A stretch of DNA of 64,000 nucleotides from a virus, in IMG/VR virus record IMGVR_UViG_3300029266_001112, positions 6,972-70,971 of that record; one strand, given 5' to 3'. Shown piece by piece: positions 5,448 through 27,051 of this stretch. Under the pieces are notes generated by a model. It did no database searches. It saw only the letters and a program-made list of their open reading frames with translations, and was not told where the DNA came from. The translations under genes were made by a program, and so were the position numbers. Numbering within the stretch: position 1 is the first letter of the stretch; each line of letters begins with the position of its first letter.

Positions 5448-6401
5448 ATGGTTAAGACATTCACCACAAATACTTTTGCAAATGTTTATAGGGATGACTA
5501 CGATGAAGATAAAAGTTTTCAACGTATCCTCTTTAACAATAAAAAAGCATTACAAGCAAGAGAACTGACCCAACTCCAAACGATTATCCAAGAAGGGGTC
5601 AATCGCTTCGGTAAAAACATCTTCAAAGAAGGTGCGGCGGTATCTGCTGGTGGTGTTGCTATCAATAATAGATATAGATTTATCAAATTAAATACGTCTG
5701 TAAACACATTACCAGCATCTCCAGATAATTTAGTTGGAAAATCTTTTGTAGGACAAACTTCTGGGGTCACTGTACAAATATTGCAAGTTGTTATAGCAGT
5801 ATCACCAGACCCTGCAACATTATATGTTCAATATACAAATACTCTTAGTGCAACATCTTCGACTGAAACGATAAATGTTACTCCTGGTGAAGAACTTGTG
5901 GAGAATAATGGATCGACTCGTCTTATTGTTCAAACTACTAATACTACTCTTAATCCTTCATTCGGATATGGTACAAAATTCTCAGCGGGCAATCAAGACT
6001 TCTTTACACAAGGATTTTTTGTTCATGCCGCACAGCAAGAAATAATAATTTCAAAATACACCAACAATATTACAAAAGTGGTTGGATTTCAAGTAGTCCA
6101 AGATATCGTCACAGTAGACGATGATAACACTTTATATGATAATCAAGGAAGTTTGCCAAATCAGACTGCACCTGGTGCTGATCGTTTTAGAATTAGACTA
6201 GTCCTTACAACTCAAGACCTCATCACATCTGGTCAGACGTTTGTGTATGTTGCAAATATCGTAGATTCAAAGATAGCGGAAAGAGTTACTGGATTGGATC
6301 AATATAATTTAGTAAATGATTTAATGGCAGTCAGGACAAATGATGAGTCGGGAGATTATACAGTTACACCATTTTTCATCAGATTCGAGGATAGCGCATA
6401 A
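5448..6401 (+). CDS. Large baseplate/virion structural protein, N-terminal part
   Basis: YRDDYDEDKSFQRILF..ALQARELTQLQTIIQ, APGADRFRI and RTNDESGDYTV match the N-terminus of the large virion protein that follows gp8 in cyanophage-like genomes. Confidence 0.75.
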   Translation: MVKTFTTNTFANVYRDDYDEDKSFQRILFNNKKALQARELTQLQTIIQEGVNRFGKNIFKEGAAVSAGGVAINNRYRFIKLNTSVNTLPASPDNLVGKSFVGQTSGVTVQILQVVIAVSPDPATLYVQYTNTLSATSSTETINVTPGEELVENNGSTRLIVQTTNTTLNPSFGYGTKFSAGNQDFFTQGFFVHAAQQEIIISKYTNNITKVVGFQVVQDIVTVDDDNTLYDNQGSLPNQTAPGADRFRIRLVLTTQDLITSGQTFVYVANIVDSKIAERVTGLDQYNLVNDLMAVRTNDESGDYTVTPFFIRFEDSA

Positions 6402-10738: not shown

Positions 10739-10949
10739 TATGCTATTTTCTAAAATCCAAGGTGAACAAAATTATGTCAAAGACCTAGAATCTGGTGCCA
10801 TAGTTAATAATGATATTACGGAAATTCAAAAGTCCAAGATGAGAAAACAAAAAATGCGAGAAGAAAAAGAAGAATTTCAAGTATTAAAATCAGAAGTAGC
10901 AGATATGAAAAGTTTGCTCGTAGAAATTTCCAGAAAGTTAGGTGACTAA
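10731..10949 (+). CDS. Small conserved phage protein with coiled-coil C-terminus
   Basis: VKDLESGAIVN motif and EFQVLKSEVADMKSLL; coupled to both neighbours; true start may be ATG 10740. Confidence 0.65.
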   Translation: MINMLFSKIQGEQNYVKDLESGAIVNNDITEIQKSKMRKQKMREEKEEFQVLKSEVADMKSLLVEISRKLGD

Positions 10950-12160
10950 TGGCAAGATTAGAAAATGTAGATTTAAGTAATTCAATAAATGCTTGGAGAC
11001 AGAAAACAAATCTCACTGCAACATATATCGGTGATTTGGACAATTTAAATACTTCTGATAGTGGGACTATTGTAGGAGCAATCAATTCAATCCAAAGTAA
11101 ATTTGCTGTTAATGGTGAAGTACAAGGATTGGCAAAAACTGCTTTGGCGTTATCCACTGGTGGTTCTGGAGCGCATTCGTCTTTATCATACGCAGATTCA
11201 GCAGGGGTTGGTGGTGGTCTCTTTACTTTCACATGCAATACCCTTACTCATACAGATATTCCTAATTTGGACGGTGGCAAGATCACAACTGGAACTATTG
11301 ATCCTGGTAGAATACCAGCAATAGATGCACTGAATATAACAACTGGTACGTTAGCGACTGCTAGGTTACCTTATTTTTCTGCGAATCAAACGACAGCAGG
11401 GCAATTTGACAGTGACCGCATACCATCTTTATCAACAAGTAAAATAACTAAAGGCGTTTTTCTTATTGGAAGAATACCAGATATTCCCTCTAGTAAAGTA
11501 ATAGCAGATGGAAGTACTGTCCCATTAACTGCAATGGACCCATCACTCGTAAGAAACAATGTTTCTACAACATACTCAGGTACGAGAGTCTATAACGGCA
11601 CCAGCACTTTTTATGATACTGTTACGGTTGGAACTAGTGCCAGTCCCGTAGTCACTACTTTTAATGGAAATATAACTCACACTGGTAATATTATTCCTGC
11701 TGGTGTAAGTAATTCATATACAATTGGTACAGCAACAGAAAAGTATCTGTCGGTTCATGCTACAACATTTTCTGGAAATGCCACATCTGCTAATTTTGCT
11801 GACCTCGCGGAAAAATATACTACAGATGAGGATTATCCAGTAGGCACTGTTATGATGGTAAACTACGGACCTGCTAGAGATGGTGAAACCACCAAATGCT
11901 CACCCTCTGGTATTCCAGTTGGAGTTATTTCAGCGGAACCAGCATTTCTTATGAATGCAGAAGCAGAAGGTCAAGCACTTGCCCTTAAAGGTAGGGTTCC
12001 TGTTAGAGTGTGTGGACAAGTTAGAAAAGGTGAAGCAGTTTATACTTGGAAAGATGGTTGTGCCAGTACTGAGTTCAATGGTGCCGAAATAGTTGGAATT
12101 GCTCTTGAAAATAGTGATATTGAAGATGAAAAAATGATTGAGTGTGTTCTTAAAGTTTAA
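10949..12160 (+). CDS. Tail fibre-like protein with C-terminal intramolecular-chaperone (peptidase G2-like) domain
   Basis: About 20-aa ITTGT...RIP repeats; C-terminal ADLAEKY..GVIS..PAFLMN..LALKGRVPVRV..VRKGE. Confidence 0.7.
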   Translation: MARLENVDLSNSINAWRQKTNLTATYIGDLDNLNTSDSGTIVGAINSIQSKFAVNGEVQGLAKTALALSTGGSGAHSSLSYADSAGVGGGLFTFTCNTLTHTDIPNLDGGKITTGTIDPGRIPAIDALNITTGTLATARLPYFSANQTTAGQFDSDRIPSLSTSKITKGVFLIGRIPDIPSSKVIADGSTVPLTAMDPSLVRNNVSTTYSGTRVYNGTSTFYDTVTVGTSASPVVTTFNGNITHTGNIIPAGVSNSYTIGTATEKYLSVHATTFSGNATSANFADLAEKYTTDEDYPVGTVMMVNYGPARDGETTKCSPSGIPVGVISAEPAFLMNAEAEGQALALKGRVPVRVCGQVRKGEAVYTWKDGCASTEFNGAEIVGIALENSDIEDEKMIECVLKV

Positions 12161-12168
12161 GTTATCTA

Positions 12169-12197
12169 TTGACAATTTGAAGTGTGTATTATATAAT
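12169..12197 (+). promoter_or_regulatory. Consensus sigma70 (host RNAP, early/middle type) promoter for the enzyme cassette
   Basis: TTGACA (12169-12174), 17-nt spacer, TATAAT (12192-12197); SD AGAGGA at 12211-12216 before ATG 12224. Confidence 0.88.
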
Positions 12198-12223
12198 GAT
12201 GTTAGTCATCAGAGGATTTAACT

Positions 12224-12724
12224 ATGTTTACCAAAAATCAGTTCTTGAAACTAATTTCAAGTGATCTTGCGTATGAACAAAATATGATCTATGCCATCGA
12301 TAAGCATGGTAATGAACATCGTATGGAAAATTTTGCAGATACCTTCGCAAACAAATCTGAAAACTCTATCAAAATTGAAAGAATGGAACATTTCAATAGC
12401 GAGATATTTTCATACTGCTTGGGTTTAGAAACTCAATATGACCATATTGGTCCTATAACATGTCATTCGTTTTATGCAGAAGCGGGCGCACATTCTTTCA
12501 AAATGCATTCTGATCCTGATAAGGTTATTATATATTGTTGTGAAGGTGTTAAAACAATGGCAATGGAAGGTCATACTATGGGTGGCAATCCATTATTCAC
12601 TTTGAAAAAAGGCGCAACTCTACATATTCCAGCAAATACCAGACATCAAGCATTTAATGAAAGTGAAGCACTCACGTTGAGTTTTGGGTTGGAAAAGTTT
12701 ATAGAGGATAAAATACAAACCTAA
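12224..12724 (+). CDS. JmjC/cupin-type Fe(II)/2OG-dependent oxygenase
   Basis: HxD motif (MHSDPDKV..EGVKT) and distal His in LHIPANTRHQA..ALTLSFG. Confidence 0.75.
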   Translation: MFTKNQFLKLISSDLAYEQNMIYAIDKHGNEHRMENFADTFANKSENSIKIERMEHFNSEIFSYCLGLETQYDHIGPITCHSFYAEAGAHSFKMHSDPDKVIIYCCEGVKTMAMEGHTMGGNPLFTLKKGATLHIPANTRHQAFNESEALTLSFGLEKFIEDKIQT

Positions 12725-13743
12725 TGTTTTGGTCAGTCTATCTTAAAACCACAGAAACTTGTCAATTAAACTGCAAGCACTGCTTCACATCTGGCAGTGC
12801 TGGTGCTAAAATTTATTGGAATACTACTAAAATAGTTGATTGGATACATAGATTTCGTGAAGAAAAACCAGCAAAAGGTGATGGAATACATTTAGAGTTT
12901 CATGGCGGCGAACCATTTTTAGTCCCAGTTGGTCAAATGCGAAAAGTTTACGATGCTTGTGATGGTCTTTGGGATAATATGAGTTGGGGCGCAACAACTA
13001 ATTTAGTATACAAACTAAAAGATCAACATAAAGAATTTATTAAGGGACCACTTCGAAATAGATTGGGTACTTCTTGGGATCGTAAAATAAGATTTGAAAA
13101 TCAAAAACAATATAACCTCTGGCACAAAAATGTTAAATCCCTCTTAGCGGATGGGGTAACCATACGTTTGTTTATTAGTCTTACGAAAGACACCCTAGCA
13201 AAAGACCCTATTGTATTACTGAGATGGTGTCGAAGATTGGGAGTTCAAGAGGTATCTTTAGAAAGATTGACTAACAACGGAAATGCAAGGCAAGCATCAG
13301 AAATATTTCCATCTAACAAAGAACTTGATGCCTACTTTTTGAAAATGCACCAGCAAATCGTGGAGTATGGAGCAAGAGATTGGTTTGACAACGATTTTAT
13401 GGAAAACGTCTACGCAAAGTTTGAAAAGACCCACACCACTTGTGGAACTTTTTGTAGAGATTGTGAAACAAAATTATTCACAATAAATGGTGATGGTACT
13501 ATCAGCGGATGCCCAAACTCAGCACCAGAATTTCAATTCGGAACTTTAGATGATTCTATAAAAACTCTTATAAATAGTCCTAGAAGAATACGAACTATTA
13601 TCGAAGAAAAAATGAGGAACCCTAATTGCCTTCAATGTCCTGTTGCAAAATTCTGTGGTGGTGATTGTCACCAATTGGGGTGGGAAGGCGATGTGTGTGG
13701 CGCACCTAAAAGTTTGATGATGGAATTAGCAAAGAATGTCTAG
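12724..13743 (+). CDS. Radical SAM/SPASM-domain enzyme (#1)
   Basis: CxxxCxxC motif CQLNCKHC and FHGGEP; C-terminal CRDC..INGDGTISGCP..CLQC..FCGGDC..C. Confidence 0.92.
   Translation: MFWSVYLKTTETCQLNCKHCFTSGSAGAKIYWNTTKIVDWIHRFREEKPAKGDGIHLEFHGGEPFLVPVGQMRKVYDACDGLWDNMSWGATTNLVYKLKDQHKEFIKGPLRNRLGTSWDRKIRFENQKQYNLWHKNVKSLLADGVTIRLFISLTKDTLAKDPIVLLRWCRRLGVQEVSLERLTNNGNARQASEIFPSNKELDAYFLKMHQQIVEYGARDWFDNDFMENVYAKFEKTHTTCGTFCRDCETKLFTINGDGTISGCPNSAPEFQFGTLDDSIKTLINSPRRIRTIIEEKMRNPNCLQCPVAKFCGGDCHQLGWEGDVCGAPKSLMMELAKNV
13569..13576 (+). promoter_or_regulatory. T4-type late promoter inside rSAM #1, upstream of the CHSN-tail gene
   Basis: Exact TATAAATA 177 nt before ATG 13753; the only copy I found inside the cassette before the one at its 3' edge. 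Confidence 0.6.
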
Positions 13744-13752
13744 GAGATAAAA

Positions 13753-14607
13753 ATGGCAATATCAGACCCTATTACAGAAAATCCTGTAATTACAAAATAT
13801 AAACAGTTTGTAACTGATAAGATTAATAGTGCTATCGTATTTGGTGATGATAACTTACCTGACCAATCAACTGCAAGTTTTTTTTCTGGGACCACAACTG
13901 GAATAACAACCACCCCAGATTTGACTGATGCTCCAATAACTGCTGCAAATATTTTTGCTGTGCTTTTGAAGGATGTTAATCAATACACCAGAGTTAGAAA
14001 GTTTACGGCAGCACGAACTGTACTAGATGCTTTTGGTAATCCACTGACAGCAGCAGTACCACTCAATAATGAACCCATATTAGCAACCAATGTTGCAGCA
14101 TCCACCAATGCACAACAAGAAAATCTATTTGCGTGTGAATGGGCGACTGCTTTGAAAACCATTGTCGCAGCAGGTAACACCACTTTAGACCTTTCCACAA
14201 CTACTGCATTTTTTACTAAATGGGGTACTTATGGTGTCGGTGGACAACCAGACACTCTTTCAGAAGCAACATTATCTGGAGTTTCTGCTGATGCCGCATG
14301 TGTTGCAGCAACTCAAAAGTATGGTATAGCATTGCGAGGTTCTGCTCAAATCGGAGTTCCTTTTACTGCGAATGGTGTTGGAATCCTAACTGCCAAACAT
14401 AGTTTTACTATTGATTCTGCTGATGTTGATCATTCGATGATTATCTCAGGAGATTTGATTAACGATGTAGATTTAGAATCGTTATTTAATAATCTTTATA
14501 ACGCATGGAAAACTGTTGCCTTAGATGCTACTGCAACTGGATATACTGAATCTGTATGTCACTCAAATTGCCATTCTAATTGTCATAATTCAAGGAATAG
14601 GAGATAG
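13753..14607 (+). CDS. Putative modification substrate: Ala/Thr-rich virion-like protein with C-terminal CHSNCHSNCHNSRNRR tail
   Basis: Strong SD (AGGAGA). Composition resembles the structural proteins, not the Lys-rich enzymes around it. Cys/His tetrapeptide repeat at 14557-14607. The substrate role is inferred. Confidence 0.7.
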   Translation: MAISDPITENPVITKYKQFVTDKINSAIVFGDDNLPDQSTASFFSGTTTGITTTPDLTDAPITAANIFAVLLKDVNQYTRVRKFTAARTVLDAFGNPLTAAVPLNNEPILATNVAASTNAQQENLFACEWATALKTIVAAGNTTLDLSTTTAFFTKWGTYGVGGQPDTLSEATLSGVSADAACVAATQKYGIALRGSAQIGVPFTANGVGILTAKHSFTIDSADVDHSMIISGDLINDVDLESLFNNLYNAWKTVALDATATGYTESVCHSNCHSNCHNSRNRR

Positions 14608-14614
14608 TTTTATT

Positions 14615-15268
14615 ATGAGTAACTATGTTACAGTGACAGCACCATTGGGAATTGACGATCTACAAAAATACTTTTCCGATAATGATATAAATTTTATCAT
14701 TGATTATGAGAACAGCGAACTGCAAGGCGAAAAACTTCTAGTTTATTTGAGTAATTTGGAATTACCGTGCGATATTAAAATTAAAGGGAAAGACTTAGAA
14801 AGTCTAGCAGAAATCTATCTTCAGTTCCCTCAAATTGTAAGTATTAAAGTTTTAGAAGAGTTTATTATTGAGGTTCTACTGGCAAGAAAAAAATTATCTT
14901 TAGAATATTTAAATTCTTATCAGGATTTTATTGACAATAATGAGGAAATGCTTGATACATGGATAAAAAAGTTAGACTCACTAACCCTTTACAATATGTA
15001 TATTATTCAAGATGATTCCATAACAGATTGGGTGAAAGGTCATAAAGAAGACGATACAGATGACATTAAAGGAATTAATTTTGTATCAGTATTGAAGCAT
15101 GAAGACTTTTATTATTACTACAACGGTTTAGATACAGAGAATTTGACTTATTATTCAAAATATTTCAACGAATATATGTTTAATGGAAAAGGTCTATTCG
15201 ATTACTGGTCATATCAAAAAAATCCACTTTTCTTATTGACTTGGGGAGTTGGTGCAGGAGAAGTTTAA
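14615..15268 (+). CDS. Hypothetical acidic protein in the rSAM cassette
   Basis: ATG 14615 follows SD AGGAGA (the 14525 start in the track overlaps the upstream gene); no recognisable motif. Confidence 0.7.
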   Translation: MSNYVTVTAPLGIDDLQKYFSDNDINFIIDYENSELQGEKLLVYLSNLELPCDIKIKGKDLESLAEIYLQFPQIVSIKVLEEFIIEVLLARKKLSLEYLNSYQDFIDNNEEMLDTWIKKLDSLTLYNMYIIQDDSITDWVKGHKEDDTDDIKGINFVSVLKHEDFYYYYNGLDTENLTYYSKYFNEYMFNGKGLFDYWSYQKNPLFLLTWGVGAGEV

Positions 15269-16309
15269 TTGGATTTAGTAGATTTCATTTTAAGAGATAA
15301 AAGAGATAAGCAGCAAGAATACACAATTCATTTGTTTGAGTTTTGTAATCTATCTTGCCCGTTTTGCTGGCAAGACCACGACAACATTGTGGGTATTGAT
15401 ACTGTATTGGACAAGTTGGAATCAATAGAAAAGTTCTTTCAAAAAGAGATGAGAAAACATGTAGTTTTAAACATCATGGGTGGTGAAATTTTTGCTGATG
15501 AAATTTTTGATGAAAAACTAAAAAATGATTATATTTCTCTTGCACAAGGCATAACAGACTTAGGGAAAAAATATAAGTTTGAAAGCATAGGGATTAATTG
15601 GGTCACTAACCTTGTGATTAGTAAAAGAGACTACGTGCGCGACCTGTTGAAGGCGTGTAGGGATATGGGATGCAACTCAAAACTGGTAACTTCATATGAT
15701 CCTAGAGGTAGATTCAATAAACCAAACTTGGAAATTTTCAAGGAAAATGTGTATAATTTCTGGGATGATCTCGAAGGAATTGGTGTTCTTTTAACCAAGT
15801 CTAATATTAAATATTGGTTGACTGATCCTAAAGATTTTATGCACGAATTATATCATAAGGGCGTAAAGGTTTATGCTGATTACTACATGCCTGATTGTCA
15901 AGCAGAAAGAAGTATGCCAACAGACAAAGAGCATTATGATATTTTCACACATTTTATAGATAACTATCCTAAGATTGATCCAATTCGTTCTTGGATAGAA
16001 AATGAGCGAAATGTTGTTTCGTGTAGATCATCTAAACTAGTTCTTGAGGATGGTACGATGTGTTTATGCGGAAATCTTGTTCAAGAACCAAGAGATAAAG
16101 CAATGTATAAAACTGATATTCAGAAGGCGAACAATAAACCTATTGAAAAAGCATTTATTGAAAAGTATAATTGTTCCACTTGTGAATATTTTCATAGATG
16201 TACTCTTGGATGTTTCATGGCACATGATTACAAATATGCGGAGGAAGTTTTTGATGAATGTGTTTATAAAATGACACATAGATATATTGAAAATAAAGGA
16301 CTTCGATGA
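15269..16309 (+). CDS. Radical SAM/SPASM-type enzyme (#2)
   Basis: CNLSCPFC and MGGE; C-terminal SCRSS..DGTMCLCG..CSTCEYFHRCTLGC..C; TTG start. Confidence 0.9.
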   Translation: MDLVDFILRDKRDKQQEYTIHLFEFCNLSCPFCWQDHDNIVGIDTVLDKLESIEKFFQKEMRKHVVLNIMGGEIFADEIFDEKLKNDYISLAQGITDLGKKYKFESIGINWVTNLVISKRDYVRDLLKACRDMGCNSKLVTSYDPRGRFNKPNLEIFKENVYNFWDDLEGIGVLLTKSNIKYWLTDPKDFMHELYHKGVKVYADYYMPDCQAERSMPTDKEHYDIFTHFIDNYPKIDPIRSWIENERNVVSCRSSKLVLEDGTMCLCGNLVQEPRDKAMYKTDIQKANNKPIEKAFIEKYNCSTCEYFHRCTLGCFMAHDYKYAEEVFDECVYKMTHRYIENKGLR

Positions 16310-16310
16310 A

Positions 16311-16961
16311 ATGTTTTATTATGCCAACTGTGATAATTCTCCAATAAGTCAAACACTTTTAAATAGATTTACATCAAGAACTAAACTTCTAACCAATCCG
16401 ATTAAAGATATTGACATTGAATATAATGTATGTTATACTGTATTCGATTATTTGGTTGATAAGGAATTACCACCTTGCATTCATTTTTTAGATAATTTTT
16501 TGAGTAGTGAGGTGTACGTGTTTAGTACTTCTTTGTCAAGTAATTTATTATCTAAAGTAGATAGTAAATCTATGGTAGAAGATTATATTACTCAATTCAC
16601 AGGATCACCTAAAACTGCAATTAATAATGATTATGAACTAGGGTGGGTTGGGATAGAAAAATCTAAAGATTGTACGATAATGTCTAATATCCAAATCAAT
16701 GGGATATATAGAAAAAGTCTGACCAGAAGACAAGAGGTTGACTTTTATAGAACTATGGTAAATTTTTGTAGAAATGAAATAAAGATTAGACCTCTTTATG
16801 CTCCTACTGCCAAGACATTAAAATCACAAATGAACAAAATGTCCAATCATCCAGATAGTGCCATAATGGAATCTCCTTATACTTCCAAAATTTTGAAAGG
16901 GTTTAAAAAGACTAAATTACAAATAGATGGCAGTGAATTGGAGTTTTATAAAAGTGATTAA
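16311..16961 (+). CDS. Hypothetical protein in the rSAM cassette
   Basis: Open frame with ATG 16311 after SD AAGGA; no recognisable motif. Confidence 0.6.
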   Translation: MFYYANCDNSPISQTLLNRFTSRTKLLTNPIKDIDIEYNVCYTVFDYLVDKELPPCIHFLDNFLSSEVYVFSTSLSSNLLSKVDSKSMVEDYITQFTGSPKTAINNDYELGWVGIEKSKDCTIMSNIQINGIYRKSLTRRQEVDFYRTMVNFCRNEIKIRPLYAPTAKTLKSQMNKMSNHPDSAIMESPYTSKILKGFKKTKLQIDGSELEFYKSD

Positions 16962-18585
16962 AATTGGATATATTAATCCTGCTGGAATTCCATCAAGGAC
17001 AGAATTTAATTATCATTGGATGCTTTTTAAATGTTTCTATGAAGATTTTGGAAAATATCCAAACGACTTTGAGTGGGTTGAACCTATATTCAAATGGAAT
17101 GAAGTGAGCATTCAAGACTGTCTTGATAATTTAAAAGATTGTTCTATTGTTTTTTTCACTAACTATGTGTGGAATTATAAGATCAATGAAAAAATACGAG
17201 AAGGACTTGATCCAAAGACTATAGTTGTTCTAGGTGGACCACAACAAGACCCAGATATAATAAAAGACTATGATTACGTGGCAGACCCCCTTGCTCCTGG
17301 TGAGGTTTTTGTTCAGTATTTCCTTGATATGTTCATGGAAAATAATATAGAAACTTCTAGAATTCCTTTTTATCTGGGAAGTTCTGTAAAAGCACCTTTA
17401 CCTTTTGGTCATACGAATGTGTATAGGAGATGTGAAAATTATTTCACTAAGCAGTATGAACACTTTATTAAAAATATAGACTTATATGAACGAATAACCT
17501 TAATATATGAAAGCACTAGAGGTTGTCCATTTAAATGCTCTTACTGCGAATGGGGTGGTGGTACAGGCACAAAAGTTTTGAAAAAACCGATGGATGTGAT
17601 CGAAGATGAGATGCTTTTTATTGGACAGTTCAAAGGTGTTCATATAGACTTGTGTGATGCCAATACTGGGATGTTCAAAGATCGTGATAGAGAAATGATG
17701 ATGCATATGGTAAAAAATGGTGTGCAAATAGGTGAAAATTTATCTGTACTAAAGACCTTAAAACTAGAACAGAAAAAGGAAATGCTTGACTTTATGATTG
17801 AGCATGATATTACTAGACAAGTTATAAGTATCAGTCTGCAATCCATTTCAGAAGAAGCAAGAAGAATAGCAAATAGAAGAGACCTCACTGAAGAAGAAAC
17901 TTACGAATTAGTAGACCATCTAACCAATAAGTGGAATAACTTTAAAGATAAAGAACTATGGTTAGATTTAGAATTAATCTTAGGTATGCCTGGTTCAACA
18001 CTTGAAGACTTCTATGAAGAGTTTAGAGTATACTATAGAATTGGATTGAACGTATGGGATGATAGTAGATATCCTTATATGGTTCTACCTGCAACTGAAG
18101 CAGCAAGCGTGGAATATAAAGAGAAGTATAAAATAAAAACTTCTAAAGTATTAACTCAATTTGATGGTAATTATAGTGGAAAATGGGATGATGTTGAAGT
18201 AAATCAAATATATGGAAACGTGACATATGAGTATGATACCATAGTTGAATGTTTTTCATACACATTTGAAGAATACTTAGAGATGTTTATGATGAATCTG
18301 TTCACTCCACACATAGGTCTAAGTTTTATAAATGAATACACTACCTATGAAAATGTGTCTGAGGTCTCAAAAGAATTATGGAATATACTCAACGATATAC
18401 CTATATTTTTTGTCTATAAAGAATTGATAAGAAATATATTCTCTGATAATGTTCCACATAGTATGGATAAATTTGATGTAGGTAGTTTTTCTGGAAAGGG
18501 CATTATTGACGAAATGAAAGATTTATTAGATACAAATGAAAAATTAATAAGGAGAAGACTAGATGAATTCTGTGGAAATTTATGA
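16927..18585 (+). CDS. B12-binding-domain radical SAM enzyme (class B methyltransferase-like)
   Basis: N-terminal FTNYVWN..IVVLGGPQ; ESTRGCPFKCSYCEWG, DANTG, SLQS and ELILGMPG. Start may be GTG 16954. Confidence 0.85.
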   Translation: MAVNWSFIKVIKIGYINPAGIPSRTEFNYHWMLFKCFYEDFGKYPNDFEWVEPIFKWNEVSIQDCLDNLKDCSIVFFTNYVWNYKINEKIREGLDPKTIVVLGGPQQDPDIIKDYDYVADPLAPGEVFVQYFLDMFMENNIETSRIPFYLGSSVKAPLPFGHTNVYRRCENYFTKQYEHFIKNIDLYERITLIYESTRGCPFKCSYCEWGGGTGTKVLKKPMDVIEDEMLFIGQFKGVHIDLCDANTGMFKDRDREMMMHMVKNGVQIGENLSVLKTLKLEQKKEMLDFMIEHDITRQVISISLQSISEEARRIANRRDLTEEETYELVDHLTNKWNNFKDKELWLDLELILGMPGSTLEDFYEEFRVYYRIGLNVWDDSRYPYMVLPATEAASVEYKEKYKIKTSKVLTQFDGNYSGKWDDVEVNQIYGNVTYEYDTIVECFSYTFEEYLEMFMMNLFTPHIGLSFINEYTTYENVSEVSKELWNILNDIPIFFVYKELIRNIFSDNVPHSMDKFDVGSFSGKGIIDEMKDLLDTNEKLIRRRLDEFCGNL

Positions 18586-19093
18586 CGATTTTTTAAATAA
18601 AGATGAATTAAACTATATAAAGAAAACTTTCTCTATGGATAATCCAGAGATTGATGCTCTACCAAGGTTTGATATGCAGAAAAACACGGCAACAAATATT
18701 AAAAATCTCATGAAGGGGTTTCCAAATTTAAACAAGGCAAAGACTATTGCACTATGTAAAGATTCGAGTATAAGCAAGGTTGCGATAGCACACTTAATTA
18801 ATATTGTCAAGTATGAAGAAGATAATAGTGAGAATATGATTTGGGAACCGCATCACGATGGCACGGAGTCTAAAATCATCACTTTGTTCTTTATAGATAT
18901 AGATAAGGATGGTTGGCAAGGTGGCGAGTTGGATATTTATAGTTCACTTGATATTTTTGAATATCCAAAAAACAAAACTAGAATAGAACCAAAACCAGGT
19001 AGATTGGTTGTTTTTAATAGTTCTATGATCCATGGCATTAAACCATATTTCGGTAAAACGCCAAGGATGACTGTAAGTGTGGGGTGGGAATAA
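18563..19093 (+). CDS. 2OG-Fe(II) oxygenase (prolyl-hydroxylase-like)
   Basis: Motifs HHD, GGEL, PKPGRLVVFNS..HGI and RMTVSVGW. Confidence 0.88.
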   Translation: MNSVEIYDDFLNKDELNYIKKTFSMDNPEIDALPRFDMQKNTATNIKNLMKGFPNLNKAKTIALCKDSSISKVAIAHLINIVKYEEDNSENMIWEPHHDGTESKIITLFFIDIDKDGWQGGELDIYSSLDIFEYPKNKTRIEPKPGRLVVFNSSMIHGIKPYFGKTPRMTVSVGWE

Positions 19094-19094
19094 A

Positions 19095-19649
19095 ATGAAT
19101 ATAGACAAAAATTCTGGAAGTTTCATCGAAAATAATCCTGATATGTTTATTCATATAAAGGACACTCTTCCAAAATTAAAATGGTTGCGCCTCAAGCGGA
19201 GTGATTCCAAAAAATCAGATAGATGGCAGAGTGTTGCTTGGAATTATTATTTTCACTCTATGAAAAAGAAAATGTTAGAGACCGCAGACTTACTTTGGGA
19301 AACTTATTTACCTTGGGAAACCGAAAAGAATTTAGATTATTACACTATGTGGAATGGTACAGATACTGGTTCGTGCGAATGGCATCATGATACTGAGGGT
19401 GGTAATCTACAGTTTAATTTGTATTTTACAGATTTAGACCCAAATGGTGGTGGTGAGATTATGTTTAGGAACATGGAACAAAATAAGAAAATTACTACCT
19501 TTCATTTACCTAAAAAGTATGATATAATTATGAGTAGTGTTGGTAATGACCTAAAATTTCAACATAGAGTTGAGCATACCAAAAATCCAAAACAAGAAAG
19601 AATAACCATGCTGTTCAGATTTAAGGTGAAGGAATCTCCATGGAAATGA
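19095..19649 (+). CDS. 2OG-Fe(II) oxygenase (paralog A)
   Basis: WHHD..LYFTD..GGEIMF..QHRV..RIT; ATG 19095. Confidence 0.85.
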   Translation: MNIDKNSGSFIENNPDMFIHIKDTLPKLKWLRLKRSDSKKSDRWQSVAWNYYFHSMKKKMLETADLLWETYLPWETEKNLDYYTMWNGTDTGSCEWHHDTEGGNLQFNLYFTDLDPNGGGEIMFRNMEQNKKITTFHLPKKYDIIMSSVGNDLKFQHRVEHTKNPKQERITMLFRFKVKESPWK

Positions 19650-20248
19650 GAGATAAAGGGTATCTCACTGAAAATAGACAAGATATGTTTATTCACATTG
19701 AAAATACCATTCCAAAACTAAAATGGTTAAATATGAATACGGATAGTAAAGATACTATTCCAAAAATGCCATGGGCAAAATCTAAAGACTGTAGGAATTA
19801 TAGCATTCCTTGGAATTATCATTTGAAGGGTATGCGAAAAAAAATAAAAAAAACTGCTGACCTGCTCTACGATACATATTTGTCTAAGTATGAAGACCCC
19901 ATGGATTACTTCGGAAATCAAAATGATAGACGGTTAATATATTCATATATTTGGAATGGCACTTCTTCTGGTTCGGATGTCTGGCACAACGATTTAATTG
20001 AAGGTGCGAATGTTTTCTTTTTACTATATTTTACAGATATGGAATTGGGGTCTGGTGGCGAAATTATGTTTAGGAACATGGAAGAAAATAAACGTGTAAC
20101 TTGTTTCCATTTACCTAAAAAATACGATCTTATATTAGGTAGTCAAGACTTAAAATTTCAGCACAGAGTTGAAGATTTTCGAAAACCTTCTATGCAAAGA
20201 ATTACTCTGAACTTCGGATTTAATATAAAGAACTCGCCGTGGACCTAA
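19640..20248 (+). CDS. 2OG-Fe(II) oxygenase (paralog B)
   Basis: WHND..LYFTD..GGEIMF..QHRV..RIT; clear tandem paralog of 19095-19649. Confidence 0.85.
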   Translation: MEMRDKGYLTENRQDMFIHIENTIPKLKWLNMNTDSKDTIPKMPWAKSKDCRNYSIPWNYHLKGMRKKIKKTADLLYDTYLSKYEDPMDYFGNQNDRRLIYSYIWNGTSSGSDVWHNDLIEGANVFFLLYFTDMELGSGGEIMFRNMEENKRVTCFHLPKKYDLILGSQDLKFQHRVEDFRKPSMQRITLNFGFNIKNSPWT

Positions 20249-21273
20249 TTATCAAACCAACAGAATTGTGCAACTTTAAGTGTTCTTTTTGCTCTTCATC
20301 TAAGATCACTCAAGATGACGATACTGCTGTGCTTGATTTGAATAAAATATTTAAATTTCTAAAAAGATTCCCAGACACAAATACTATCATAGTCAATGGT
20401 GGTGATCCTTTGATGATGAAACCTAATTATTATTGGAGGTTGATAGAGTTTTTAGATAAACATAATATGCCAGCATCAATATCTCTGACAACCAATTTAT
20501 ATCCCTTTCTAATGAAACCAAAAAAATGGGTAGAACTCTTTAACCATCATAGAATTGGTGTTGGCACATCATTTCAATATGGTGGTGGTAGATTAAAGGG
20601 AGATTATAGCGAGTTCACTGAAGAAGATTTTTGGAAATGCTCAAATGCGATGTTAGAATATGTTGGATATAGACCCTCTTTCATTGCAGTTATTGTTGAA
20701 GAAAATGAAGACACTGTTATTAAGACGGTGGAACTAGCAAAGAAAATGGATGTGGTATGTAAAGTAAACTACGCAATGGCATCAGGATCACAATCTGCAC
20801 CCTATAGACTTTCAAAGATATATGAAAGATATATACAAATATGGAAAGCAGGTCTAAGTGATTGGGAACATAACACACAACAAATGCTGAATAGGTTAAG
20901 AAAAAAACCAACCATATGCCCTCAGTCGAGAAATTGCGATAGTGGTATTAGAAACATCCAACCAGAAGGTGATTACTATTCATGCGGTTCCTTTGGTGAT
21001 GACTTTGATAAACCGATAGATTTTGAGTATGAAATGAAAGGTGGGTTTTCGACACCACTCTCAGATGATTTCTATCTAAAGAGTCTTAAAAACTCATGTT
21101 ACACATGCCCAATGTTTGAAATTTGTAATGGATGTAAGAAAACTATAAAAGATTTAAAACAGCACAATATGGTAGAAGATCATTGCAAACATATGAAATC
21201 TATGGCAAGTGATATAATTTCATTAAATAGGATGGATACTAAAGTAACAGAATATGTGAGAGAGTATTCATGA
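20239..21273 (+). CDS. Radical SAM/SPASM-type enzyme (#3)
   Basis: IKPTELCNFKCSFC and NGGDP; C-terminal CPQSRNC..PEGDYYSCG..CYTCPMFEICNGC..C; GTG start. Confidence 0.92.
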   Translation: MDLIIKPTELCNFKCSFCSSSKITQDDDTAVLDLNKIFKFLKRFPDTNTIIVNGGDPLMMKPNYYWRLIEFLDKHNMPASISLTTNLYPFLMKPKKWVELFNHHRIGVGTSFQYGGGRLKGDYSEFTEEDFWKCSNAMLEYVGYRPSFIAVIVEENEDTVIKTVELAKKMDVVCKVNYAMASGSQSAPYRLSKIYERYIQIWKAGLSDWEHNTQQMLNRLRKKPTICPQSRNCDSGIRNIQPEGDYYSCGSFGDDFDKPIDFEYEMKGGFSTPLSDDFYLKSLKNSCYTCPMFEICNGCKKTIKDLKQHNMVEDHCKHMKSMASDIISLNRMDTKVTEYVREYS

Positions 21274-22202
21274 TAGTCTCAATCAACCCAACATATTTTT
21301 GTAATTTTAGGTGTAATTTTTGTTATCTTACACCAGAACAGTTGGGCGATCAAAAAAAGATTTCATTTGATAAACTAGATGAATTACTATCTCAAGTACC
21401 TAATGTTGAACATGTTGATTTGTATGGTGGAGAAATGGGGGCAGTGAAAAAGTCATATTTTTATGGTATCAAGGAAGTTATTCGAAAATACTATTCTGGT
21501 ACAATTAATATCAATACCAACTATTCTATGATGCACGATGGTTTCTTTGATGACGATGTTTATCTGTCTGTATCATATGACTTTAGTGCTAGAGAAAAAT
21601 CTAACTTAGTATTTCAAAATATGATGATGAGTCCAGCACCGATTGCGGTTCTTATTCTAGCATCACCTGAAGTTTTGAAAATGAATGTTAAAGAAATGAT
21701 TCAAATGTTGAATATGTGTGGTGCCGTGAAATCGGTAGAAATAAAACCATATTCTATCAACCAAGCAAACTCGTTTACTGTGACGCATTTGGATTTTGAA
21801 AAGTTTGTTATTCGTTGGATGGAACTGGAAGATCAAATGAACTTTCAGTTTGTAAATGGAGATAAGATAGAGGAGTCTTTTAATGGACTATACAATGCAT
21901 TTTCGGATGATCATGTTTACATTACTCCTAACGGCAAGTTTGGAGTATTGGAGTTTGATATACACGATAGAGAATACTTTCACGAATTGGATTCTTTCCA
22001 ATCTTATATAGAATGGACAGAAAAAGAAAAAAAAGATATGATAAGTCCTATTTGTACTTCATGCAAATATTTTGGTAATTGTTTAACAGAACATTATCGA
22101 TATGTCAAGGACTTAGATAATGGGTGTAACGGATATAAAGGACTATTGGATTGGTATGAAAAAATGGAGAACAGCATCACAAGTTTATCACCTACTTACT
22201 AG
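21270..22202 (+). CDS. Radical SAM enzyme with partial SPASM-like tail (#4)
   Basis: NPTYFCNFRCNFC and YGGE; C-terminal CTSCKYFGNC..GC; ATGA overlap with #3. Confidence 0.88.
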   Translation: MIVSINPTYFCNFRCNFCYLTPEQLGDQKKISFDKLDELLSQVPNVEHVDLYGGEMGAVKKSYFYGIKEVIRKYYSGTININTNYSMMHDGFFDDDVYLSVSYDFSAREKSNLVFQNMMMSPAPIAVLILASPEVLKMNVKEMIQMLNMCGAVKSVEIKPYSINQANSFTVTHLDFEKFVIRWMELEDQMNFQFVNGDKIEESFNGLYNAFSDDHVYITPNGKFGVLEFDIHDREYFHELDSFQSYIEWTEKEKKDMISPICTSCKYFGNCLTEHYRYVKDLDNGCNGYKGLLDWYEKMENSITSLSPTY

Positions 22203-22569
22203 GGAATATTCAGATGATTTGAATAAAATGGAAGTGACTTGGACTGAAGAAAATATCGTAAATGATGCAGTGCTACATTTCACTGAATATGTTGATGAGA
22301 CTATTAGACCAGCAAAATCATATTTTGTTGCAATTTGCTATGCCTATTGGTTATCACAAGACTTTGATGAAAACTTTTTTGAATTACTAAATGACCAATA
22401 TTTACTAGCAGAGAATGATCCACATTTTATTCAGTACCTATTAGATATTAAGACCTATGATGAAATATTAAAAAAGGTGAAATTCCCATTAGAAATGACA
22501 GGAATGGTGCCAGATGTTAGAAAATATTATGAAGATGAGTTTAAACTGGCATTGCAACCTTATAAATAA
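22156..22569 (+). CDS. Hypothetical protein, last gene of the rSAM cassette
   Basis: Open frame (PAKSYFVAICYAYWL); probable ATG at 22156. Confidence 0.6.
   Translation: MKKWRTASQVYHLLTREYSDDLNKMEVTWTEENIVNDAVLHFTEYVDETIRPAKSYFVAICYAYWLSQDFDENFFELLNDQYLLAENDPHFIQYLLDIKTYDEILKKVKFPLEMTGMVPDVRKYYEDEFKLALQPYK
22561..22568 (+). promoter_or_regulatory. T4-type late promoter resuming structural transcription
   Basis: TATAAATA at the 3' edge of the cassette, ~30 nt before ATG 22600. Confidence 0.85.
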
Positions 22570-22599: not shown

Positions 22600-23817
22600 A
22601 TGAGTAGAAAAATTACAGTAAACCTAACTGATAAAATAGAAACTTGGCGTAATGCAACAAACACTATGTCTGGGTATGTAGGTGAACCTGATAACCTCAC
22701 CACAACCAATAAGACAGACTTGGTTCAAGCAATCAATGAGATTAAAGCAGTTTCTGGATCAACCTATGTCACAACGGCATTAAGTCTTGTGGCAGGTGGT
22801 AATGGCAGTCATACAACATTATCTTATGATTCTAACAGTGGACTTTTTTCTTTCTCAAGTAATGCTATAGGACCATCTCATTTAACGGCATTACCCGCTA
22901 GTGTGATTACTAGTGGAACTTTTGCTGTAGGTAGAATCCCAAATTTATCAACAATAAAAATTACCAGTGGTACATTCAACAAATTGAGAATACCACAACT
23001 GCATGATTTGGACGGTCTCATAAAAGATTCTCAAGTTGGATTCACCACTTCAGATGTTCCAGAAGGTAGTCCAAATCTTTATTTTACAGATAGTAGGTCA
23101 AGGGGATCATTTACTACAGACAGTAACATTACTCTAGATTCACATGGTAAACTTGGTCTTATATTATCTGCTGCGACGATTGCAGGACTTAACGCATTTA
23201 CCCCATTGAGTGGCACTGGTATTACCGTTGGTAGTAATGATTCAATTAGTATCGGACAAGCAGTTGCGACAACTTCTAGTGTAACTTTCGCCGCTGTTGC
23301 AACTGGTTCTCTCACTTCAACTGGCGGTGTTATTGGCACAGGCGGAACATTTTCAGCGGCGGTGTCTGGTGCAACAATTGCTGGTGCTATGGTTGCTACT
23401 AATGCTCAAGCAGATGCTGGGACCGCAAGCAATTTAATTATGACTCCACTTCAAGTGAAAAGGCAAGTTACTGGAAAAAGAACAACAAAATACGAAAGTA
23501 CATTTGTTGCAATGGCAAATTCAAGTTTAATTCCTTTTGTGCATGGACTTGGTGTAGAACCAGATTTAATCTCTTATAGACTTAAATGTATTGCCGCAGA
23601 GGGGGGTTATTCTATAGGAGATGTCATTGATATCCATCCTAGTGCTGATGGACATGGCATAAATGAAGGTTTTGGTGCCACTATCAGTACTACAAACGTG
23701 GATATCAGAATATCAGTAAATGGTCCTGGACAGTATAATCAAAAAGGCAGTGGGAGTCATGTATTATTCACATCAGCAAGCTGGCAAATCCAAGTCAAAG
23801 CATTCGTAGTAGCATAG
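22600..23817 (+). CDS. Tail fibre-like protein, paralog of 10949-12160
   Basis: Homologous N-terminus (V.L...I..WR..TN....Y.G..DNL.T.....V.AIN.I), ITSGTF..RIP repeats and a TTSDVPEGSPNLYFT motif. Confidence 0.7.
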   Translation: MSRKITVNLTDKIETWRNATNTMSGYVGEPDNLTTTNKTDLVQAINEIKAVSGSTYVTTALSLVAGGNGSHTTLSYDSNSGLFSFSSNAIGPSHLTALPASVITSGTFAVGRIPNLSTIKITSGTFNKLRIPQLHDLDGLIKDSQVGFTTSDVPEGSPNLYFTDSRSRGSFTTDSNITLDSHGKLGLILSAATIAGLNAFTPLSGTGITVGSNDSISIGQAVATTSSVTFAAVATGSLTSTGGVIGTGGTFSAAVSGATIAGAMVATNAQADAGTASNLIMTPLQVKRQVTGKRTTKYESTFVAMANSSLIPFVHGLGVEPDLISYRLKCIAAEGGYSIGDVIDIHPSADGHGINEGFGATISTTNVDIRISVNGPGQYNQKGSGSHVLFTSASWQIQVKAFVVA

Positions 23818-23828
23818 AAAGATAAACA

Positions 23829-25085
23829 ATGGTTAAAATAGTAGACTTACCGATTGCCTCTATATCAGATTTAGATTCATCTCAAAATTATATGGTGGTA
23901 ACTGGAACCAATTTATCTGGCGGTTTTGCTACCGCAAGAGTATCATTGGCAACTGTTGGAAATTTTTATAATAATGTTGGTGCGTTGACATCTAGTGGTG
24001 TTCAAACACTTGTAGATTCAAACTATGTCTACAGTTTAATAAATAATTCTAGCGTAAATAATCTGACAAAACCAGTAACTTTGCCGTTTTCTTCAGTTAG
24101 TGCCAGACCAACTACATTAAGTGGATACGGTATTGTCAACGGTATCACTCAAAATACAATTAAGGATGAGGATAATTTAGGGTCAAATAGTGACTTGCAC
24201 GTTCCCACCCAACAGTCGGTTAAAGCATATGTTGACGCAAGTATTCTTACAAAAGATAATACTGATGAAATTACTGAAGGTTCGACAAATCTATATTATA
24301 CGCAAGCAAGATTTAACACCGCAATTGGTGCGAAGTCTACCACAGATTTAAGTGAAGGTACAAATCTTTATTATACGGATGGTAGAGGCGATAGCAATAT
24401 CACTGGTAAAGATTTAAGTATGGGCGCGAATAATATTACTACCACTGGAAATATTATTAGTGGAAAATCTCTCTATTCAAATATGTATGCGACAGAGGCA
24501 GCATTACCAGCAGCAGGAACATACCACGGTATGTTTGCTCATGTTCACGCCACAGGTAAAGGGTACTTTTCCCATGGTGGTCTTTGGCATAAACTTGTTG
24601 ACGAAACAAATTTAACAAGTCAAATTGACTCCGATTATGTAACTGCGCGATCAGCACCTGGAGTAGATTCTTCTACGATTATTAATAGTATTACTGATCC
24701 TAGATACCTTAGAAATAATAAAGGTGTTGGTACTATTGATAGTATGAACAGTAGTTTGCAAGTCGATGGTAGCATTACCACTAATGGTGATATTACAGCA
24801 TTTGCTTCTGCTTCAGAAAGATCACTGAAAGAAAATATTGAACGCATTGATAATGCACTTGATAAAGTTACATCACTTACAGGATACACTTTTACATATA
24901 AGGGGAACGAGGAAAAAGTTTCTGGTCTTATGGCAGATGAAGTTCAAGCAGTTCTTCCAGAAGTCGTGTATAATTTTGATGGAGATTTAAGAGCAATTCG
25001 TTATGGTAATATGATGGGTCTCGTTATAGAAGCAATAAAAGAACTAAGAGCAGATGTTGAAAATCTTAAAGAAAAGATTAAATAA
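23829..25085 (+). CDS. Tail fibre with C-terminal peptidase S74-type intramolecular chaperone
   Basis: GDITAFASASERSLKENI..NALDKV..LTGYTF..GLMADEVQAVLPEVV..YGNMMGLVIEAIKEL; EG(S)TNLYYT repeats. Confidence 0.85.
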   Translation: MVKIVDLPIASISDLDSSQNYMVVTGTNLSGGFATARVSLATVGNFYNNVGALTSSGVQTLVDSNYVYSLINNSSVNNLTKPVTLPFSSVSARPTTLSGYGIVNGITQNTIKDEDNLGSNSDLHVPTQQSVKAYVDASILTKDNTDEITEGSTNLYYTQARFNTAIGAKSTTDLSEGTNLYYTDGRGDSNITGKDLSMGANNITTTGNIISGKSLYSNMYATEAALPAAGTYHGMFAHVHATGKGYFSHGGLWHKLVDETNLTSQIDSDYVTARSAPGVDSSTIINSITDPRYLRNNKGVGTIDSMNSSLQVDGSITTNGDITAFASASERSLKENIERIDNALDKVTSLTGYTFTYKGNEEKVSGLMADEVQAVLPEVVYNFDGDLRAIRYGNMMGLVIEAIKELRADVENLKEKIK

Positions 25086-27043: not shown

Positions 27044-27051
27044 TATAAATA
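27044..27051 (+). promoter_or_regulatory. T4-type late promoter
   Basis: TATAAATA in the gap before the giant gene. Confidence 0.85.

Follow-up and report, generated by a model that had tools for sequence, protein, structure and literature searches.

A phage cassette of radical SAM enzymes and oxygenases linked to a Cys-His-tailed protein among tail-fibre genes

What do five radical enzymes and a group of oxygenases do in the tail-fibre region of a phage? This question is raised by the IMG/VR record IMGVR_UViG_3300029266_001112, a fragment of a marine T4-like myovirus of 70,971 bases with an estimated completeness of 34%, of which positions 6,972 to 70,971 were analysed (64,000 nucleotides, hereafter the window, to which all coordinates refer). 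The baseplate wedge protein of this virus is 41% identical to that of Phage C48C1 and 32-35% identical to those of Methylophilales and Pelagibacter myophages. Within positions 12224-22569 the listing of open reading frames (ORFs) contains 13 genes, g1 to g13, all on the + strand, whose ends overlap or abut. The junctions are overlaps of 1 nt (12724), 4 nt (21270-21273) or 10-35 nt, or else gaps of 0-9 nt, bearing out the co-directional, overlap-coupled arrangement described in an original prediction made from the sequence alone. The products of the cassette are five radical S-adenosylmethionine (rSAM) enzymes, a cupin/JmjC protein, three 2-oxoglutarate (2OG)-Fe(II) oxygenases (one of them clear, the other two probable), three unknowns and g3, a protein ending in Cys-His repeats, and it is flanked by the fibre-like gene f0 on the 5′ side and by f1 and f2 on the 3′ side. 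On balance, and with somewhat better than even confidence, we favour the view that it is a mobile phage maturation cassette that covalently modifies the tail of g3, a late and probably fibre-associated protein.

The evidence that carries this view is the linkage between the tail and the enzymes. By the test that the original prediction had proposed, the Cys/His-tailed protein and these rSAM clades occur together, and this is seen in both directions. A search of IMG/VR with g2, the rSAM gene that precedes g3, yielded 63 loci, 52 of which carry an ORF with a CHxxCHxxCH tail directly behind g2. A tail ORF was present in 52 of 52 viral loci that combine a g2 relative of at least 45% identity with enough downstream DNA. 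Among the 11 tail-less loci seven are cut off within g2 or less than 300 nt after it, three are 39% matches over 77 residues, and one, L058, contains a 30% relative. Tail ORFs of the g3 family comprise 124-364 amino acids (aa), with a median of 186. For the reverse search, a degenerate DNA pattern that covers only the tail was run against IMG/VR and picked out at least 120 viral stretches, compared with about 0.02 matches expected by chance according to our own rough estimate. The surroundings could be judged for 106 of them, the other 14 having too little upstream DNA. Among the tail matches listed, 81 have a g2-like rSAM gene within 3.6 kb upstream, 23 have an f0-type fibre end directly upstream, and two show weak enzyme matches nearby. 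Chance or artefact as the origin of the tail pattern was rejected on these co-occurrence counts.

Two layouts were observed. In type A, g4 lies directly 3′ of g3, as in the window. In type B, represented by 18 of the 23 fibre-preceded loci, two small tail genes stand in tandem; in L070:6053-6879, L075, L108, L118 and 15 other loci these genes of 125-140 aa are located directly 3′ of a fibre gene. In type B loci the enzyme genes are 4-11 kb distant or in another part of the contig. Three of five type B contigs contain a g11 relative (60-64% identity) away from the tail genes, and the two contigs without it are fragments estimated to be 15-22% complete.

The same association extends to GenBank phages. 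Each of g2, g4 and g11 matches the same 15 of 50,697 GenBank phage records (duplicates counted), namely Atu_ph07, Phosso, RSL2, RSF1, the FLC phages, SURPRISE13, RsoM3USA and pPa_SNUABM_DT01, with identities to these jumbo-phage records of 39-52% for g2 and 54-60% for g11. The gene order cupin-rSAM-tail protein recurs in Atu_ph07 and RSL2, where a g1 homologue precedes g2, and the tails in those records read CHSSCHASCHNSRSRR and CHSSCHTSCHGSRGRR. Likewise, g5 is conserved in Atu_ph07, RSL2 and most viral loci, and g12 in Atu_ph07 and RSL2. Searches of the phage records by tblastn with g3 and g7 gave no match, nor did a megablast search with the whole cassette. Since direct reading reveals g3 relatives in Atu_ph07 and RSL2, the blank tblastn result for g3 is attributable to divergence or to the low-complexity filter. 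The cassette was also detected on contigs of metagenome-assembled genomes (MAGs) labelled Bdellovibrio, Bacteriovoracaceae and Pseudobdellovibrionaceae, one of which, labelled Bdellovibrio, carries three Peptidase_S74 fibre-like genes directly upstream; these contigs may represent prophages, mis-binned phages or bacterial genes. Members of the g3 family occur in marine phages of the T4-like type, in jumbo phages of soil bacteria (phiKZ-like and others) and on contigs that were binned with predatory bacteria, and the family is in all cases associated with fibre genes, which serve host contact. The cassette is real and widespread as a phage system, apparently has not been studied, and shows a strong link between its enzymes and the tail. 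In line with the earlier statement that no functional characterisation of such a phage system is known, we found in the literature no functional study of the cassette and no report of an rSAM enzyme finishing a phage protein. The accessible text of three jumbo-phage papers (PMC8066314, PMC11898562, PMC5468394) gives cupin, rSAM and 2OG annotations only, and the word 'radical' is absent from a jumbo-phage review (PMC7824862).

The presumed substrate, g3 (13753..14607, 284 aa), ends as predicted in a Cys/His-rich sequence, CHSNCHSNCHNSRNRR (residues 269-284; 14557..14604), which is followed by a TAG stop codon. A profile of 30 relatives searched against 1.84 billion proteins retrieved 823 family representatives at 50% identity, 519 of them at E<=1e-10. 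Tail endings were counted in the best 149 of these 823 representatives, leaving out the protein of the window itself. The exact ending CHxxCHxxCHxxRxRR is present in 132 of the 149, and in 126-131 of these 132 tails Ser or Asn occupies the fourth place of each repeat. Twelve others retain three CH units with another end (e.g. CHGSI), and the remaining five have other endings, some with two CH units. A homology search with the tail region returned seven close relatives.

The AlphaFold2 (AF2) model of g3 (mean predicted local distance difference test score, pLDDT, 86.0; predicted template modelling score, pTM, 0.80) comprises a globular alpha/beta core, a helical hairpin at about residues 106-198, which is an insertion relative to short family forms, and a loose C-terminal tail (pLDDT 42-52) at the exposed end of the confident model. 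The core corresponds to a conserved, confidently folded domain of 180 aa with an invariant N-terminal motif. It gave no Foldseek match in the PDB at E<=0.001, and in a VIA-wide search of g3 the helical-hairpin insert alone was matched (Z<=8.4, within the noise for helices); structure matches in BFVD are homologues only, including gp170 of Atu_ph07. Neither a signal peptide nor a peptidoglycan-binding domain was found in g3. The idea that g3 is a fibre protein proper was rejected, its model being globular. Among the closest loci g3 is the fastest-changing gene of the cassette, with 51-64% identity where g2 shows 94%, g5 93-98% and g11 92%, and the fast-evolving part is its middle. P0044, a representative-library protein of 453 aa, is a fusion in which the core and tail of g3 are joined to a Gly_rich_2 domain; this domain has a match to a 'tail'-category PHROG as well.

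Two further sequences resemble the tail. On an actinobacterial MAG contig (L072:1410-1613), an ORF of 67 aa carries about ten consecutive CHSN units; cassette genes were not detected near it, and its origin may be a simple repeat in the DNA or a peptide with no relation to g3. On a 208-kb contig labelled Gemella (L073:9533-10123), a variant tail ends in CHSSCHSNCHHR and is surrounded by several rSAM genes and large LRR_5/DUF285 surface-type proteins.

Which reactions could the enzymes contribute? All five rSAM enzymes that had been proposed contain the CX3CX2C motif, beginning at residues 13, 26, 200, 11 and 11 of g2, g5, g7, g11 and g12, respectively. The Radical_SAM model PF04055 (cut-off 29.5 bits) is passed by g7 (16927..18585, 552 aa; 40.4 bits) and by g11 (20239..21273, 344 aa; 40.8 bits), the best-conserved gene of the cassette. 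The scores of g2 (12724..13743, 339 aa; motif at residues 13-20), g5 (15269..16309, 346 aa) and g12 (21270..22202, 310 aa) lie below it at 17-26 bits (26.4 for g12). The rSAM family phrog_1802 is matched by g2 (5e-59) and g5 (3.5e-40), and g2 passes the SPASM model TIGR04085 with 34.8 bits (cut-off 27). The SPASM motifs CX2CX5CX2-3C and CX9-15GX4C are present in g2, g5 (CX2CX5CX3C at residue 302) and g11. Hence, of the four SPASM-like tails claimed initially three are complete, whereas the short, Cys-poor C-terminal domain of g12 contains only four Cys residues in a partial twitch-like pattern; g7 is devoid of a SPASM motif. Motifs and PF04055 place all five enzymes in the radical SAM superfamily, and TIGR04085 and the Cys motifs place g2, g5 and g11 in its SPASM/twitch subgroup; SPASM domains are typical of enzymes with peptide or protein substrates.

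Among the core enzymes g2, g5, g11 and g12, similarity is detectable only between the N-termini of g11 and g12. Judged by their sequences they are not recent copies of one another, and each probably performs a reaction step of its own. Because their CX3CX2C motifs start as early as residues 11-26, these four enzymes have no N-terminal recognition domain, and a PqqD-like recognition element was found in none of the 13 cassette proteins in profile searches of Pfam, NCBIfam and PHROG; a recognition fold may be hidden in g4 or g13. The best NCBIfam profile matches of the cassette rSAM enzymes are peptide or protein maturases, and g2 has full-length, sub-threshold matches to TIGR04083, DynA, the anaerobic sulfatase-maturing enzyme (anSME) and PapB. 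The earlier suggestion that the enzymes resemble peptide- or protein-modifying rSAM/SPASM families rather than nucleotide enzymes is therefore upheld.

The fifth rSAM enzyme, g7, is an accessory component found in part of the viral loci only. Its rSAM core is preceded by an N-terminal extension of 190 aa, and it matches the KedN5 family (2.4e-26; 92 bits, cut-off 700) and TIGR04013 (34 bits, residues 99-223). Its description as a B12-type enzyme is confirmed only in part, since the B12-binding domain PF02310 was not found in g7 at E<=0.01. From its sequence g7 is a possible class-B-like methyltransferase.

The oxygenases are of two kinds. The cupin/JmjC-type Fe(II) oxygenase g1 (12224..12724, 166 aa; phrog_8014, 7e-25) passes, as had been expected of the one JmjC/cupin protein, both Cupin_2 (30 bits, cut-off 27.2) and JmjC_2 (24.3, cut-off 22), a family that contains ribosomal His/Arg hydroxylases; its metal-ligand pattern comprises H95-S-D97 and later His residues. 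The accessory protein g8 (18563..19093, 176 aa) passes the 2OG-FeII_Oxy_3 model PF13640 with 33.9 bits (cut-off 27). The proposal of three 2OG-Fe(II) oxygenases holds clearly for g8 and only probably for the other two: accessory g9 (19077..19649, 190 aa; HHD...H) scores 20.2 bits, under the cut-off, and is 28% identical to g8, and g10 (19640..20248, 202 aa) has no Pfam match, yet is 49% identical to its paralogue g9 (E 1e-61). The HxD...H pattern is shared by g1, g8, g9 and g10.

The three proteins listed as unknowns, g4 (14615..15268, 217 aa, with its ATG at 14615), g6 (16287..16961, 224 aa) and g13 (22120..22569), have kept that status, as Pfam, NCBIfam and PHROG searches assigned them to no family beyond PHROGs of unknown function (phrog_20767, 5e-51, for g4). 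None of them, nor g3, matched an NCBIfam model at E<=0.01. The conserved protein g4 yielded a confident AF2 model (pLDDT 84.9, pTM 0.83), for which Foldseek returned no match and the VIA-wide search only Z<=4.1; profile searches of PDB sequences returned no match with an E-value under 0.2 for either g4 or g13. In the ESM Atlas there was no usable match for g4 and one for g13 (DUF6707, score 0.76), which is below lead level. A complex prediction for g3 and g4 returned a score of 0.00 and hence no answer, speaking neither for nor against binding. The lineage-specific g6, which has no match in Pfam, NCBIfam or PHROG, has homologues only in its closest relatives, L004, L005, L006, L008, L045 and L182 (72-73% identity). 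The conserved g13 always adjoins g12 and shows 38 invariant columns among 14 sequences. As annotated, its ORF begins with 12 codons that are shared with the end of g12 and that contain a stop codon in many relatives. Since these homologues have a stop before the equivalent Met, g13 probably starts at the ATG at 22156 (137 aa).

When would these genes be expressed? A sigma-70-type consensus, TTGACA-N17-TATAAT, matches at 12 of 12 positions at 12169..12197 on the + strand, 26 nt before the ATG of g1, and is by this consensus match a putative promoter. All 16 loci with a g2 identity of at least 84% retain it in the same position, with 12 or 11 of the 12 letters matching; in 35 more distant loci the consensus score is 10 or less. 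A T4-type late promoter motif, TATAAATA, lies inside g2 (13569..13576, + strand), 177 nt before the ATG of g3. In 50 of 109 distinct g2 homologues this motif falls on the codons for x-[L/V/I]-I-N-[S/N/R], which always spell NTT-ATA-AAT-A.., even where the first residue differs. It is found elsewhere in the last 300 nt of g2 in 21 more homologues and is missing from 38, including the jumbo-phage and Bdellovibrio-type loci. The motif is not enriched across the window (12 found, 9.4 expected). Fixed synonymous codons thus indicate that TATAAATA is selected within g2 as DNA, and the arrangement suggests late expression of g3, with synthesis of the enzymes possible at an earlier stage.

The fibre neighbours were described correctly. 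Upstream, f0 (10949..12160, + strand) is fibre-like by tail-fibre PHROG matches and tblastn conservation. Downstream, f1 (22600..23817, + strand) is preceded by TATAAATA at 22561, has weak tail-fibre PHROG matches and resembles f0 at its N-terminus, and f2 (23829..25085, + strand) is a tail-fibre protein with an intramolecular chaperone domain (Peptidase_S74, 1.5e-13) and many tail-fibre PHROG matches. The C-terminal domain of f0 (11678-12157, about 130-160 aa), with the motif ADLAE.Y...GTV...GVIS..PA..MN...L.GRV, closely precedes the cassette in the majority of T4-like relatives; in type B it comes directly ahead of the tail genes. Its profile matches are weak (E 0.005 to 0.05) and include the cleavable autochaperone of phi29 gp12 (3gqh, E 0.012) and the Dpo31 tailspike chaperone (E 0.005); the solved fragment 3gqh of the phi29 pre-neck appendage starts at the motif aligned with f0. 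If the autochaperone match is real, f0 could be a self-chaperoned fibre whose new tip could receive g3, by analogy with the gp38 adhesins of T2-type phages, which sit on gp37. Taken together, the place of the cassette beside fibre genes in phages of unrelated lineages, the late promoter, the variability in the central part of g3 and the P0044 fusion point to a role of g3 at or near the host-contact apparatus, and to that extent they agree with the proposal that the product is a virion component.

How does the cassette compare with known maturation systems? The closest analogue is the antiphage HXS system, in which, according to the accessible part of Li et al. (Nat Commun 2026, PMC13128918), the effector HxsA with basic His-x-Ser repeats is matured by the rSAM enzymes HxsB and HxsC together with HxsD, SHRSS of HxsA gains +8 Da, and function depends on the modified repeat. 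In both cases a whole protein would be matured by more than one rSAM enzyme and small helpers; the g3 tail recalls the basic His-x-Ser repeats in that it contains three H-x-S/N units and an R-x-R-R end. However, its three repeats have a period of four, an invariant Cys and a position at the extreme C-terminus, whereas HxsA is described in that part of the paper as having five units and no such Cys, and the phage cassette sits among fibre genes and has four rSAM enzymes plus oxygenases. The corresponding models remain far off: g2 scores 32.6 bits against HxsB (TIGR03978, cut-off 370), and against HxsC (TIGR03977, cut-off 267.9) g11 reaches 33.2 and g12 17.8 bits.

As with anSME/AtsB (TIGR03942), rSAM/SPASM enzymes that lack an N-terminal recognition domain would act here on Cys or Ser residues within a short motif, and the protein that carries the motif is of full size. 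Both g2 and g11 match this model full-length or N-terminally (E 4e-11 and 4e-12), at 42.5 and 46 bits against a cut-off of 349. The sulfatase motif, C/S-x-P-x-R, is not found in g3, and one enzyme acting on one residue stands against four or five enzymes for a 16-residue tail. Cys residues at every fourth position near the C-terminus beside rSAM/SPASM enzymes are also reminiscent of ranthipeptides, sactipeptides and CXXX-repeat peptides, including those of the SCIFF type, and g2 has a full-length match to PapB (NF047865; E 2e-10) and an N-terminal one to TIGR04115 (E 6e-10). Its scores of 40.6 and 39 bits fall well short of the PapB and CXXX-repeat maturase cut-offs of 340 and 350. Moreover, the cassette is devoid of a recognition element, a leader-type precursor, a protease and an exporter, and its substrate would be a folded protein of 130-360 aa. 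The same holds for classical RiPPs (peptides that are made by ribosomes and modified after translation): no PqqD, peptidase or ABC family occurs in the 13 proteins, and g3 is folded. The RiPP-like pathway proposed at first is thus retained as protein maturation, but not as a classical RiPP pathway. In the case of QhpD, a single rSAM/SPASM enzyme introduces several Cys thioether cross-links into the gamma subunit (QhpC) of quinohemoprotein amine dehydrogenase (QHNDH), which is kept in the assembly. A matured protein that stays part of a larger assembly would be common to both, although in the case of QhpD only one enzyme is involved and the target is a bacterial redox enzyme. By sequence, the cassette appears to work like an rSAM protein-maturation system that is distinct from the HXS, anSME, PapB and CXXX-repeat systems.

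Based on this pattern, we infer that the tail is the substrate of the enzymes, a proposal that draws on the strict two-way linkage, the exposed and invariant tail and the kinds of enzymes present; the kind of chemistry and the virion location are inferred likewise. The target would be the invariant (Cys-His-x-Ser/Asn)x3-Arg-x-Arg-Arg, and the core machinery would consist of the four mutually unrelated rSAM enzymes g2, g5, g11 and g12, the oxygenase g1 and the helpers g4 and g13. The lineage-specific additions g6, g7 and g8-g10 may decorate the product further, perhaps by methylation and hydroxylation. As the CX3CX2C motifs begin at residues 11-26 and no PqqD-like element was found, the enzymes would read the exposed tail on folded g3, as anaerobic sulfatase maturases do, and not a RiPP leader. 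Candidate reactions include the formation of thioether bridges from Cys to carbon, of the kind found in QhpC and in sacti- and ranthipeptides, a change centred on His/Ser that would resemble the +8 Da gained by SHRSS of HxsA, hydroxylation of His or Arg by the JmjC-type g1, and methylation by g7. In this scheme g3 would be made with the structural proteins from its own T4-type late promoter, stay a protein instead of being cut to a peptide, and join or serve the neighbouring fibre apparatus. Its fast-evolving middle, here the helical hairpin, would face the host, and the matured tail might serve as a rigid anchor or contact element, which could bind metal or be cross-linked.

Several observations weigh against this interpretation. 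The modification chemistry is a guess from family knowledge, and the combination of oxygen-sensitive rSAM enzymes with oxygenases that need O2 is unexplained. The virion location of g3, a part of the original proposal, is presumed from genomic and sequence features, and the g3 model is a globular alpha/beta structure and not a fibre. In the accessible part of the Atu_ph07 paper (PMC6102473), 'CDS 170-215' is named with two other blocks in which virion proteins are numerous; the protein with the Cys-His tail is gp170, and at gp181 the numbering was found to match. We rejected this as proof that gp170 is in the virion, as each block comprises exactly 46 coding sequences and the limit may be arbitrary. 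If the autochaperone match is true, the f0 domain may simply mark a fibre gene and not a partner of g3. In addition, L058 (209,566 bases, 93% complete) encodes relatives of g2, g5 and g13 with 26-30% identity. Their neighbours are ThyX, an RNase H-like gene and a DNA methylase, and this genome contains no (CHxx)3 motif at any position. The wider enzyme family is thus not tied exclusively to the tail: the possibility that the enzymes occur independently of it is contradicted by the strict linkage in close relatives, but realised in these distant homologues. Finally, a dihydrofolate reductase (DHFR) gene lies inside the cassette of Ralstonia/Burkholderia jumbo phages; in RSL2 (ORF073/074; L002:15042-16191) a DHFR gene and a second DHFR-like gene are inserted between rSAM genes.

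Could the matured g3 act elsewhere than on the virion? An effector working inside the infected cell or its envelope, for instance a counterpart of HxsA that keeps the DNA of competing phages from entering, or a decoy for defences of this kind, seems unlikely to us. Three C-H-x-S units with a basic R-x-R-R end do recall the HxS repeats of HxsA as far as these are described (PMC13128918), several rSAM enzymes with small helpers of unassigned fold parallel HxsB/C/D, and the model of g3 is globular. On the other hand, no HxsA, HxsB, HxsC or HxsD model reaches its cut-off, g3 carries none of the export or peptidoglycan-binding features looked for, the period-4 repeat with its invariant Cys departs from the description of HxsA given in the accessible text of that paper, and both the position among fibre genes and the late promoter argue for a structural context. 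A related and very improbable view treats g3 as a phage-borne version of the HxsA principle, in which the rebuilt basic tail, on or beside the fibre or released at infection, would act at the envelope, gating DNA passage so that rival phages are excluded or neutralising HxS-type host defences. If true, radical-SAM protein chemistry would operate on both sides of the phage-host conflict.

It is also quite unlikely that the 16-residue tail is modified, cut off and freed as a classical RiPP such as a metallophore, toxin or signal. A C-terminal core with conserved Cys spacing beside rSAM/SPASM genes is the usual RiPP layout, the CXXX-repeat, PapB and sactipeptide maturase models give weak N-terminal matches, and the tandem small genes of the 18 type B loci among the matches listed could be taken for precursors. 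Yet, as had been noted at the outset, no protease, transporter or immunity family was found among the 13 cassette proteins in Pfam, NCBIfam and PHROG, a recognition element is missing as well, the 'leader' would be a conserved folded domain of 180 aa, which is wasteful if disposable, and the neighbourhood is structural. We regard as highly improbable that the enzymes modify a small molecule, a cofactor or DNA/nucleotides, with the tail serving as the metal or cluster site of an accessory or scaffold protein. The DHFR inside RSL2-type cassettes, the presence of distant homologues near ThyX and a methyltransferase gene in L058, the N-terminal similarity of the rSAM enzymes to MoaA, viperin and NrdG models, and the good metal-binding capacity expected of three Cys-His pairs can be cited for it. 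However, these model matches cover the generic rSAM core only and lie far below the cut-offs, SPASM domains point to peptides or proteins as substrates, genes of nucleotide metabolism are absent from the T4-like cassettes, and a mere scaffold would hardly explain the strict enzyme-tail linkage.

Maturation of a fibre-associated g3, the reading we prefer, would extend a known chemistry to a new setting. rSAM/SPASM chemistry is known from peptide natural products and from sulfatase and amine-dehydrogenase maturation. Since 2026 it is also known from the HxsA defence effector (PMC13128918). If the g3 product is a virion protein, it would represent a new class of covalent modification in phage structural biology and host recognition, and the cassette would provide a defined substrate of 16 residues for four or five radical enzymes that are as yet uncharacterised, which makes its chemistry directly testable.

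The structural block that contains the cassette also includes three giant ORFs at 27088-42591, 42592-47283 and 6401-10738 (5167, 1563 and 1445 aa), which presumably encode giant fibre or structural proteins. Near these giant ORFs, further copies of TATAAATA are located at 27044 and 42468.

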